The notes under the pieces were generated by a model. It did not search any database. It was not told the DNA's origin and saw only the letters and a list, made by a program, of their open reading frames with translations. Both the position numbers and the translations under genes were made by a program. A DNA stretch of 64,000 bases from Escherichia coli (GTDB taxonomy: Bacteria; Pseudomonadota; Gammaproteobacteria; Enterobacterales; Enterobacteriaceae): assembly GCF_050920415.1 (NCBI RefSeq), contig NZ_CP169309.1; one strand, given 5' to 3'. Below are positions 8,920 through 12,247 of the stretch, piece after piece (the first letter of the stretch is position 1; each line of letters starts with the position of its first letter).

Positions 8920-9657
8920 ATGTCACAGTCTACATCCGTGCTTCGTCGTAATGGATTTACTTTTAAACAGTTTTTTGTTGCTCACGATCGCTGTGCGATG
9001 AAAGTGGGAACGGATGGCATTTTGCTGGGCGCATGGGCACCGGTGGCTGGGGTAAAACGTTGCCTTGATATCGGCGCGGGTAGCGGGTTGCTGGCATTAA
9101 TGCTGGCGCAGCGAACCGATGACAGCGTGATGATTGATGCCGTTGAACTGGAAGGTGAAGCTGCGACTCAGGCGCAGGAAAATATCAACCAGTCCCCTTG
9201 GGCAGAGCGGATTAATATCTATCCGGCGGATATTCAGCAGTGGATCACCCAGCAGACAGCACGCTTTGATTTAATCATCAGTAACCCGCCTTATTATCAG
9301 CAGGGCGTTGAGTGCGCTACGCCGCAGAGGGAACAGGCACGCTATACCACTACGCTTGATCATCAATCGTTGCTAACCTGCGCGGCGGAGTGCATTACTG
9401 AAGAGGGATTTTTTTGCGTGGTGTTGCCAGAGCAGATTGGTAATGGTTTTACTGAACTGGCATTAAGAATGGGCTGGCATTTACGTTTACGGACGGATGT
9501 GGCGGAAAACGAAACGCGACAGCCGCATCGGGTGCTGCTGGCATTCTCCCCACAGGCGGGAGAATGCTATAGCGATCGCTTAGTGATTCGTGGGCCAGAC
9601 CAGAGCTATTCCGAAGCGTACACTGCGCTGACCCAGGCTTTTTATTTGTTTATGTAA
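8920..9657 (+). CDS. yfiC: tRNA (adenine37-N6)-methyltransferase TrmN6 (YfiC)
   Basis: ORF 8800..9657; start at ATG 8920 ([13 protein letters not shown]) gives 245 aa; NPPY methyltransferase motif (IISNPPYY). Confidence 0.85.
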
Positions 9658-11264
9658 AGGTTGTCGGGGGAAAGGATCGATGGGCCAGAGTGAGTGAGCA
9701 ACTCCGGGTAATCCAGCGTGAAATGCAGCCCCCGGCTCTCCTTGCGCACCATCGCACAGCGAACAATCAACTCGGCAACCTGTACCAGATTACGCAGCTC
9801 CAGCAAATTATTTGATACGCGGAAATGGGCGTAATATTCGTCTATTTCCTGCTGAAGCATATTGATCCGCCGCAGGGCGCGTTCCAGACGTTTCGTTGTG
9901 CGCACAATGCCGACGTAATCCCACATAAACAGACGTAGCTCGTGCCAGTTATGTTGAATCACCACCAGTTCGTCAGGGTTCTCAACACGGCTTTCATCCC
10001 ACGGCGGTAACGTACTGACGTCGTGGGCATAAGGCATACGCCTGGTAATATCCTCCGCCGCCGACCAGCCGTAAACCAGACACTCCAGTAATGAATTTGA
10101 GGCCATGCGGTTAGCGCCGTGTAAGCCGGTATAACTCACTTCGCCAATGGCGTACAAACCTTCGACGTCCGTACGCCCATGATCATCAACCATTACACCA
10201 CCGCAGGTATAGTGTGCAGCAGGCACAATCGGCACAGGGCCTTTCGTGAGATCAATCCCCAGTCCCAATAACTTTTCATAAATCATCGGGAAATGCTGAC
10301 GAATAAAATCGGCAGGCTTATGGCTGATGTCGAGATACATACAATCCGCACCGAGGCGTTTCATTTCATGATCAATAGCGCGGGCGACAATATCGCGCGG
10401 GGCCAGTTCGCCGCGCTCATCGAAATCGGGCATAAAACGCGTGCCATCCGGGCGCTTGAGATAAGCACCTTCGCCGCGCAGTGCTTCCGTTAACAGGAAA
10501 TTTCGTGCCTGTGGGTGATAGAGCGCGGTAGGGTGAAACTGATTAAATTCGAGATTGGCGACCCGGCAGCCCGCGCGCCACGCCATAGCAATGCCATCGC
10601 CAGAAGAAATATCCGGATTGGTGGTGTACTGATAAACCTTCGACGCACCGCCGGTTGCCAGCACAACCGCTTTTGCGTGGCAGGTTTCAACCGTTTCTTT
10701 ATTTCGGTTCCATACCCACGCGCCTACAACTCGTCGCGTGCCCGGCAGGCCAATTTTGTCAGAGACAATCAGATCAACCGCGTTGCTGCGCTCCAGCACG
10801 CGAATATTCGGATGGTTCTGCGCCTTGCTCACTAGGGTGGTTTCTACTTCTTTACCGGTGGCGTCCGCAGCATGAAGAATTCGTCGGTGACTATGTCCAC
10901 CTTCACGGGTCAAATGGTAACTTTCTTCGCCATTCGATTGAACGTGGGTATCAAACAACACCCCCTGGTCGATTAACCATTGCACACAGGAACGCGCATT
11001 GCTGGCGACAAATTCAACTGCATGGCGATCACAAATACCAGCACCGGCTATCATTGTGTCTTCCACATGCGAATCAATGCTGTCAGTTTCATCAAACACG
11101 GCGGCAATTCCGCCCTGGGCATAAAATGTTGAACCTTCCGTGACTGGGCCTTTACTTAGAACGATGACATGATGCCGATCAGCCAGACGTAGCGCCAGTG
11201 AAAGCCCGGCAGCGCCGCTACCGATAATCAACACGTCACATGAATGTTCAGGGAGAGTATTCAT
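9642..11264 (-). CDS. nadB: L-aspartate oxidase
   Basis: 540-aa ORF with N-terminal FAD-binding GSGAAGLS motif; 3' end overlaps yfiC 3' end by 16 nt. Confidence 0.95.
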
Positions 11265-11270
11265 TTTCTT

Positions 11271-11288
11271 TGTTTAATTTACTAAACA
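11271..11288. promoter_or_regulatory. NadR-type operator (TGTTTA-N6-TAAACA) immediately upstream of nadB
   Basis: tgtttaatttactaaaca palindrome 7 nt upstream of nadB start codon. Confidence 0.6.
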
Positions 11289-11561
11289 CGGTTTGGTCAG
11301 CATAGCATCATGTTGTGCGATTAAACACCTGCTATTTTAATTTTTGTTACAGAGGCTAAACAGACCGAATCACGGCGACGAGAAAACGAGAAGTTACTGG
11401 CTGGCGAAGGATTAGGTGGTGAAATAAAAAGGCCGTTGGGTTACTCTTCAGGCAGTTAAATGGGCATTTCTACACAGATAATGCGATGTTCAGATTCTGT
11501 AGACTTATAATGATAGATAATGATCCGTCTACAGCATGACAAACAAAAACAGATGCGTTAC

Positions 11562-11589
11562 GGAACTTTACAAAAACGAGACACTCTAA
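11562..11589 (+). promoter_or_regulatory. Sigma-E dependent promoter of rpoE (autoregulated P2-type)
   Basis: GGAACTT -16 nt- TCTAA, matching the sigma-E -35/-10 consensus, ~85 nt upstream of rpoE ATG. Confidence 0.7.
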
Positions 11590-11615
11590 CCCTTTGCTTG
11601 CTCAAATTGCAGCTA

Positions 11616-11675
11616 ATGGAGTGGCGTTTCGATAGCGCGTGGAAATTTGGTTTGGGGAGACTTTACCTCGGATGA
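11616..11675 (+). CDS. rseD: 19-codon leader ORF (rseD-type) translationally coupled to rpoE via ATGA overlap
   Basis: atg gag tgg cgt ttc ... ctc gga TGA, with the stop overlapping the rpoE ATG (ggATGAgc). Confidence 0.55.
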   Translation: MEWRFDSAWKFGLGRLYLG

Positions 11676-12247
11676 GCGAGCAGTTAACGGACCAGGTCCT
11701 GGTTGAACGGGTCCAGAAGGGAGATCAGAAAGCCTTTAACTTACTGGTAGTGCGCTATCAGCATAAAGTGGCGAGTCTGGTTTCCCGCTATGTGCCGTCG
11801 GGTGATGTTCCCGATGTGGTACAAGAAGCTTTTATTAAAGCCTATCGTGCGCTGGATTCGTTCCGGGGAGATAGCGCTTTTTATACATGGCTGTATCGGA
11901 TTGCTGTAAATACAGCGAAAAATTACCTGGTTGCTCAGGGACGCCGTCCACCTTCCAGTGATGTGGATGCCATTGAAGCTGAAAACTTCGAAAGTGGCGG
12001 CGCGTTGAAAGAAATTTCGAACCCTGAGAACTTAATGTTGTCAGAAGAACTGAGACAGATAGTTTTCCGAACTATTGAGTCCCTCCCGGAAGATTTACGC
12101 ATGGCAATAACCTTGCGGGAGCTGGATGGCCTGAGCTATGAAGAGATAGCCGCTATCATGGATTGTCCGGTAGGTACGGTGCGTTCACGTATCTTCCGAG
12201 CGAGGGAAGCTATTGATAACAAAGTTCAACCGCTTATCAGGCGTTGA
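11672..12247 (+). CDS. rpoE: RNA polymerase sigma-E (sigma-24) factor
   Basis: 191 aa from ATG 11672 (MSEQLTDQVLVERVQKGDQKAFNLLV...), ECF sigma regions 2 and 4. Confidence 0.97.
   Translation: MSEQLTDQVLVERVQKGDQKAFNLLVVRYQHKVASLVSRYVPSGDVPDVVQEAFIKAYRALDSFRGDSAFYTWLYRIAVNTAKNYLVAQGRRPPSSDVDAIEAENFESGGALKEISNPENLMLSEELRQIVFRTIESLPEDLRMAITLRELDGLSYEEIAAIMDCPVGTVRSRIFRAREAIDNKVQPLIRR

Follow-up and report, generated by a model that had tools for sequence, protein, structure and literature searches.

The question raised by this locus is how translation of rpoE, the gene for sigma-E, is tied to the leader that precedes it, and which open reading frame, if any, acts in that leader. In the 64-kb window, that is, the whole stretch of E. 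coli DNA analysed, nadB and rpoE are divergently transcribed and are separated by 407 bp (11265-11671), the nadB start codon ending at 11264 and the rpoE ATG beginning at 11672 (Table 1). An earlier note on this DNA had described the spacer as a divergent control region with a NadR operator, a sigma-E promoter and a leader ORF that ends over the rpoE start, and this description, the spacer length and the coordinates of all its elements were borne out. A 551-bp query covering the region (11200-11750) finds a single, chromosomal match in each of 5425 out of 5426 complete E. coli genomes and is 100% identical to E. coli MFDS1022581; the RefSeq annotation gives the gene order as nadB, divergent from rseD (51 aa), followed by rpoE, rseA and rseB. 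The region is very probably, mechanism included, the known intergenic control region between nadB and rseD-rpoE-rseABC of E. coli. Its NadR operator, sigma-E promoter, rseD and CsrA-regulated leader are each members of a known family and are already known, the first three being found in textbooks or databases for K-12-like E. coli genomes, and the novelty is residual: a conserved, predicted pairing of the 5' end of the sigma-E transcript with the rpoE start codon, and evidence that selection does not act on rseD as a protein.

Table 1. Features of the nadB-rpoE region, with positions in the window, strand and the basis of each assignment
Feature	Position	Strand	Basis
nadB (L-aspartate oxidase)	9642-11264	minus	540-aa ORF; annotated in an E. 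coli RefSeq record with 100% identity
NadR operator, perfect 18-bp palindrome TGTTTA-ATTTAC-TAAACA	11271-11288	none	exact consensus; 7 nt from the nadB ATG
Probable nadB -10 hexamer TATGCT	11299-11304	minus	conserved block CAGCATAGCA in 12 genera; putative promoter assignment
Second, weaker NadR-like site TGTTACAGAGGCTAAACA	11345-11362	none	2 mismatches to consensus
Perfect -10 hexamer TATAAT, upstream non-sigma-E rpoE promoter	11506-11511	plus	GACTTATAATGA conserved in 15/17 Enterobacteriaceae
rseD, 51-codon rpoE leader ORF	11520-11675	plus	ORF list; RefSeq CDS 'rpoE leader peptide RseD'; NCBIfam NF033697
Sigma-E-dependent rpoE promoter (-35 GGAACTT, 16-nt spacer, -10 TCTAA)	11562-11589	plus	published consensus and conservation
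9-nt island GCTTGCTCA, RNA GCUUGCUCA	11596-11604	plus	would occupy +1 to +9 of the sigma-E transcript; complement of 11673-11681
19-codon ORF (rseD codons 33-51 and stop)	11616-11675	plus	no Shine-Dalgarno; ATG only in Escherichia/Citrobacter
Predicted hairpin UUUGGGG/CCUCGGA around the rpoE Shine-Dalgarno, pairing the A of AUG	11651-11672	plus	RNAalifold and MFE fold
rpoE (sigma-E)	11672-12247	plus	ORF list and RefSeq annotation; rseA and rseB downstream

Transcription of rpoE would start at several promoters further upstream as well as at the autoregulated sigma-E promoter (-35 at 11562, -10 at 11585). The latter had been proposed as GGAACTT-N16-TCTAA; its two elements (11562-68 and 11585-89) form the sole match in the window at 0-1 mismatch, agree with the sigma-E consensus and are conserved. 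Since about 0.7 one-mismatch matches per window are expected by chance, the significance of this promoter rests on conservation and not on the motif count: [G/T]GAA[C/T]T[T/A]-N16-TCNNA is present at the equivalent place upstream of rpoE in 30 of the 31 Enterobacterales compared. The published rules for sigma-E promoters comprise a GGAACTT -35, a TCAAA -10, a spacer of 15-19 nt with a strong preference for 16, a 5/6-nt discriminator and a purine start, and a highly conserved sigma-E promoter precedes the entire rpoE operon (Rhodius et al. 2005). The locus is like the regulon promoters of that study in its -35, its 16-nt spacer, its -10 (TCTAA vs the consensus TCAAA), its 6-nt discriminator to a purine and its A-rich upstream region, and no difference from them was found. 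With the 6-nt discriminator, the predicted start is G11596, which gives a leader of 76 nt. Reviews describe six promoters for rpoE, all upstream of or within rseD, the autoregulated sigma-E promoter being P6 (formerly P2) and the other five lying upstream of it. The TATAAT of Table 1 ends 8 nt before the rseD ATG at 11520, a distance that suggests a leaderless or near-leaderless rseD mRNA as a possible product; a scan for sigma-70 promoters and terminators over 11150-11800 returned nothing, and missed this hexamer because no -35 accompanies it. A search with the sigma-54 pattern gave 226 matches vs 225 expected, none of them in the nadB-rpoE spacer.

The leader ORF is longer than the earlier note had it. 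The frame that had been delimited there, from ATG 11616 to TGA 11673-75, does comprise 19 sense codons (MEWRFDSAWKFGLGRLYLG) and a stop, and its TGA overlaps the rpoE ATG (11672-74) as ATGA; the leader ORF does bear the name rseD, but the annotated rseD is the 51-codon ORF of Table 1, in which ATG 11616 encodes Met33. The open frame reaches back to 11517, with in-frame ATGs at 11520 (51 codons), 11553 (40) and 11616 (19), and the 19-codon stretch was rejected as a separate ORF on the grounds of this upstream opening. The 51-aa product of 11520-11672 scores 104.2 bits against NCBIfam NF033697 (cut-off 35) over residues 7-51. In comparison with rseD/ORF51 of that family, the locus is alike in position, in frame, in the stop over the rpoE ATG and in being the first gene of rseD-rpoE-rseABC, whereas the 19-codon ORF corresponds to the last codons only and the full ORF starts upstream of the sigma-E promoter. 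Anyone reusing the annotation should take rseD as 51 codons, not 19. Codons 15-24 of rseD hold the -35 and -10 of the sigma-E promoter, and G11596, the predicted start, falls in codon 26. Because its promoter is inside rseD, the sigma-E transcript cannot encode full-length RseD; it lacks ATG 11520, and so only the 19-codon tail, with its AUG at +21, is translatable on that transcript.

These features make it conceivable that a separate 19-codon uORF starts at AUG 11616 on the sigma-E transcript and that termination at AUGA drives re-initiation at rpoE, in which case sigma-E autoregulation would depend on a 19-codon mini-ORF. The picture is internally coherent, with ATG 11553 also missing from that transcript and ATG 11616 the sole in-frame ATG left; in the MFE fold the area around 11616 is largely open and the rpoE AUG is paired, and a GGA overlaps ATG 11616 (AUGGAG, 11618-20), so that control by CsrA would be possible in principle. 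Nevertheless, a Shine-Dalgarno sequence is missing in front of all three in-frame ATGs (anti-SD duplexes of +0.4, +0.7 and +1.2 kcal/mol, in the order given above), and the value for ATG 11616 is worse than the median of -2.8 kcal/mol for all ATGs of the window. In the 17-genus Enterobacteriaceae alignment, moreover, this ATG occurs only in E. coli, E. albertii and Citrobacter, whereas the sigma-E promoter, the 5' island and the Shine-Dalgarno region are conserved in all, and the 19-codon ORF is not what either the annotation or the literature calls rseD. On balance, a dedicated 19-codon uORF is rather unlikely.

The wider comparison covered 80 fetched rpoE loci, one genome per species, of which 31 Enterobacterales were compared; Salmonella was outside the sample, and looking up the exact protein gave E. 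coli-type loci alone. The ATGA overlap is present in almost every one of the 80 loci, including those of Vibrio, Aeromonas and Pseudoalteromonas, whose upstream frame has just 0-10 open codons; it is near-universal because rpoE codon 2 is AGC. As evidence of coupling the overlap was accordingly rejected, being forced by that codon and occurring without an upstream ORF, and it should not be read as diagnostic of coupling elsewhere. The open frame that ends at the overlapping TGA ranges from 8 to 83 codons among the 31 Enterobacterales, and in 14 of them it contains no in-frame ATG (GTG and TTG not scored). The ATG at the position of 11520 is shared by Enterobacter, whose frame is interrupted, and the annotated rseD start of Citrobacter is a different ATG that overlaps TATAAT. 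Between 11605 and 11620 the genera differ by indels whose lengths are not divisible by three; two lineages have a 1-nt insertion within the 19-codon part, Siccibacter has an in-frame stop and Shimwellia a frameshift. The minimal numbers of substitutions by codon position over the last 18 codons of the uORF are 16:19:15, to be compared with 8:1:82, 9:5:86 and 7:4:75 in three 60-codon blocks of rpoE from the same genomes. The third-position excess, conserved frame and conserved start of a protein-coding sequence are thus not found in the uORF.

Because the codon-position test is even, the strong nucleotide conservation of 11620-11671 is not of the protein-coding kind. As judged from these alignments, it reflects an RNA or DNA function, namely the Shine-Dalgarno sequence, GGA motifs and structure, and conservation further upstream reflects the promoter elements embedded in rseD. 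We infer that the sequence of the RseD peptide is not under selection, that its effect can come only from translation passing through the region, and that the coupling ORF would be a feature of the Escherichia/Citrobacter lineage. Since no selection on the peptide is apparent and the ORF is unconserved beyond these two genera, rseD is better treated as a cis-acting leader than as a fifth Rse protein.

The same data could be taken a step further, to a uORF that is incidental, with 11596-11671 being a 5' UTR element (Shine-Dalgarno, CsrA sites, structure) and rpoE being mainly independently initiated. The absence of a codon-position signature, the unconserved frame, length and starts, and the forced ATGA all agree with this view. 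In E. coli the uORF is simply open in the -1 frame, and an open frame of about 52 codons is expected by chance with a probability of (61/64)^52, or about 0.08, which is not improbable. In addition, rpoE has a strong Shine-Dalgarno sequence of its own, GGGGAG (11654-59), with an anti-SD duplex of -8.5 kcal/mol that ends 11 nt before the ATG. This sequence, however, lies 12 nt from the AUG and is partly base-paired in the predicted folds, in keeping with a need for coupling, and it was published experiments that gave the ORF its name and the annotation 'rpoE leader peptide RseD'. Yakhnin and colleagues are said to have found in 2017 that the ORF51 stop overlaps the rpoE start and that rpoE is translationally coupled to ORF51, loss of the coupling reportedly lowering rpoE translation by more than half. 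An incidental uORF is distinctly unlikely in the light of these points. The name 'rse' might suggest a functional small protein with a trans-acting role in the envelope stress response; nearly all E. coli have the ORF intact, and the Escherichia and Citrobacter peptides share 73-98% identity. The codon-position test, however, led to the rejection of such a protein and makes it most improbable, the substitutions being spread evenly over codon positions and mostly non-synonymous, the N-terminus not being positionally conserved even between E. coli and Citrobacter, the ORF being broken or start-less in sister genera, truncated and frameshifted alleles existing in E. coli and Shigella, and half of the ORF overlapping promoter elements that explain its nucleotide conservation.

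The favoured reading is therefore that of the known coupled leader, in which rseD, described as the rpoE leader peptide in the RefSeq annotation, NCBIfam NF033697 and reviews, would act through its translation. Transcripts from the upstream promoters would carry the 51-codon rseD, and ribosomes that end it at UGA 11673-75 would find themselves on the overlapping rpoE AUG and re-initiate there. For CsrA, three leader sites have been reported, two of them over the rpoE Shine-Dalgarno and start codon, with repression of translation (review; EMSA and fusion data), and the GGA motifs at 11656 and 11670 are likely to be these two; CsrA bound there would repress rpoE translation. The nearest analogue in mechanism is idlP-iraD (Park et al. 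2017), described by the laboratory that also described the rpoE leader: a short leader ORF is translationally coupled to a regulator gene whose start it likewise overlaps slightly, and the leader is bound by CsrA. The two differ in that CsrA acts on iraD only via the uORF, whereas at rpoE it binds the Shine-Dalgarno and start codon themselves according to the literature, and in that the main stress promoter of rpoE is embedded in its uORF.

The start site of rpoE would, moreover, be masked by two helices that upstream translation could melt. In an RNAalifold consensus of 17 genera, the 5' island GCUUGCUCA (11596-11604) pairs over 9 bp with UGAGCGAGC (11673-11681), a stretch made up of the last two bases of the AUG and codons 2-4, and a second helix joins UUUGGGG (11651-57) to CCUCGGA (11666-72) and encloses the Shine-Dalgarno sequence; both the island helix and the SD hairpin are held in the E. 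coli MFE and centroid folds. Positions 1-8 of the island (GCUUGCUC, 11596-11603) are identical in 29-31 of the 31 Enterobacterales and position 9 in 23, compared with a majority base in only 10-16 of the 31 at the flanks, or 21-24 at two flanking positions. The island always begins 5-6 nt past the sigma-E -10, which places it at the 5' end of the transcript. The main substitutions, at position 6 (C>U, two lineages) and position 9 (A>G, seven lineages), retain G-U pairing; the others are confined to two divergent loci and to Rahnella, where a G>A at position 1 costs one pair. The two divergent loci are one Pantoea MAG, with a diverged island and two mismatches, and Siccibacter, whose diverged element still pairs without mismatch once the register is shifted (CUGCUCG with CGAGCAG). 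In the SD hairpin, a G>A at 11655 in three genera replaces a G-U pair by an A-U pair.

The strength of the island/start duplex is -17.2 kcal/mol, a value also reached by about 2% each of shuffles and of genomic 30-mers (p about 0.02). A covariation search of the predicted UTR structure over the 17 genera found no compensatory pairs and one-sided pairing-compatible changes only, a lack of compensation that is due to the rpoE side being invariant. The MFE z-scores are unremarkable (-1.2 and -0.7), the longer transcript is predicted to fold differently, an Rfam search of the region gave no family down to E = 1, and in Vibrio and Pasteurellaceae the 5' element and its pairing are not kept (-7 to -10 kcal/mol). 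It is plausible that the island helix is the reason why upstream translation helps rpoE initiation, the ribosomes melting both helices; the island could alternatively be conserved for a reason at the DNA level or for the stability of the 5' end. As a tentative proposal, less probable than not, the conserved 9-nt 5' end and the SD hairpin may together form a translational lock on the positive-feedback transcript, opened by upstream translation (of the 19-codon tail in Escherichia/Citrobacter), by displacement of CsrA or by another factor. Such a lock would be a post-transcriptional brake specific to sigma-E autoregulation and, if the pairing is real, would help to explain how cells limit runaway positive feedback by sigma-E, an excess of which is lethal (review).

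On the other side of the spacer, the palindrome TGTTTA-N6-TAAACA that had been noted next to nadB (half-sites at 11271-76 and 11283-88) matches exactly the published 18-bp NadR consensus, TGTTTA-N6-TAAACA (PMC2330245), and an exact match occurs once in the 64-kb window and in none of 100 shuffles. Where nadB upstream of rpoE was located by tblastn in the fetched loci and every spacer was searched, about 20 genera of Enterobacteriaceae and Erwiniaceae proved to have the same box at 2-8 nt from the nadB ATG, nearly always with the ATTTAC spacer. These include Escherichia, Citrobacter, Enterobacter, Pluralibacter, Pseudescherichia, Superficieibacter, Shimwellia, Siccibacter and Mixta, together with most Pantoea loci, some of which have one mismatch; the box is absent from the nadB spacers of Serratia, Rahnella, Vibrio, Aeromonas, Shewanella and others sampled, and among the sampled loci none was found outside Enterobacteriaceae and Erwiniaceae. 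This distribution is in agreement with the confinement of the DNA-binding domain to enterobacterial NadR (PMC2330245). In Salmonella, NadR binds the nadB promoter (EMSA, ChIP) and represses nadB. When NAD is sufficient, NadR would accordingly be expected on the perfect palindrome, just downstream of the probable nadB promoter, with repression of nadB as the outcome; given the predicted -10, the box would span positions of about +4 to +21 in the nadB transcript. The operator is like those of nadA-pnuC, pncB and nadB in Enterobacteria in having the exact consensus beside a gene of de novo NAD synthesis, and there is no material difference from them, save a possible second, weak site. This putative second NadR site (11345-11362), whose right half CTAAAC is invariant in 12 genera, lies 74 bp from the perfect box, centre to centre, and may contribute to NadR binding.

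The sigma-E transcript, which starts at the autoregulated rpoE promoter, carries at its predicted 5' end a 9-nt island, GCTTGCTCA, conserved throughout the 31 Enterobacterales compared; the rpoE start-codon region is its perfect complement, and the recurrent substitutions found within the island preserve this pairing. The leader of the same transcript also contains four GGA motifs, the first of which overlaps the ATG at 11616 that opens the 19-codon tail of rseD, the rpoE leader ORF (AUGGAG); of the three CsrA sites described in the literature, two cover the SD and the start codon, and the third would be at one of the GGAs upstream of these.

Features of the nadB-rpoE spacer and rpoE start (window positions)
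Feature	Position	Remark
NadR-like site TGTTACAGAGGCTAAACA	11345-11362	2 mismatches
Conserved blocks GTGGTGAAATAAAA and GTTACTCT	11416-11448	invariant core TACTCT-like
Perfect TATAAT hexamer	11506-11511	ends 8 nt before rseD ATG (11520)
9-nt island GCTTGCTCA	11596-11604	predicted 5' end of sigma-E transcript; partner 11673-11681
GGA motifs (n = 4)	11618, 11641, 11656, 11670	within 76-nt sigma-E leader

Further upstream, the TATAAT hexamer is kept as GACTTATAATGA in 15 of the 17 Enterobacteriaceae, and no SD precedes the rseD ATG; since this ATG lacks an SD and lies so close to the hexamer, the mRNA that serves for rseD translation may be leaderless or nearly so. Possible matches for the hexamer are the published upstream rpoE promoters named P1-P5, and the blocks GTGGTGAAATAAAA and GTTACTCT, common to 12 genera, are presumably elements of upstream rpoE promoters.

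Within the species, SNPs are clustered in the middle of the spacer (11342-11407), in contrast to the nearly invariant 11420-11690; the window strain is unlike most E. coli in this cluster, only 18 of 5425 genomes reach at least 99% identity over 11200-11750, and other genera carry insertions of 20-40 bp in the same stretch. The NadR-like site, a candidate auxiliary operator, has its centre 74 bp from that of the perfect NadR box adjoining nadB and sits on the upstream side of the probable nadB -35; 12 genera show no variation in CTAAAC, the right half of the site.

Rare natural rseD alleles occur in E. coli and Shigella (proteins P0003, P0004, P0006, and P0013), with a truncation (40 aa), a frameshift, or a 3-codon deletion; another, from a Shigella flexneri record, has a frameshift that lets the ORF continue into rpoE (64 aa). 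Such variation fits a peptide that is weakly constrained.
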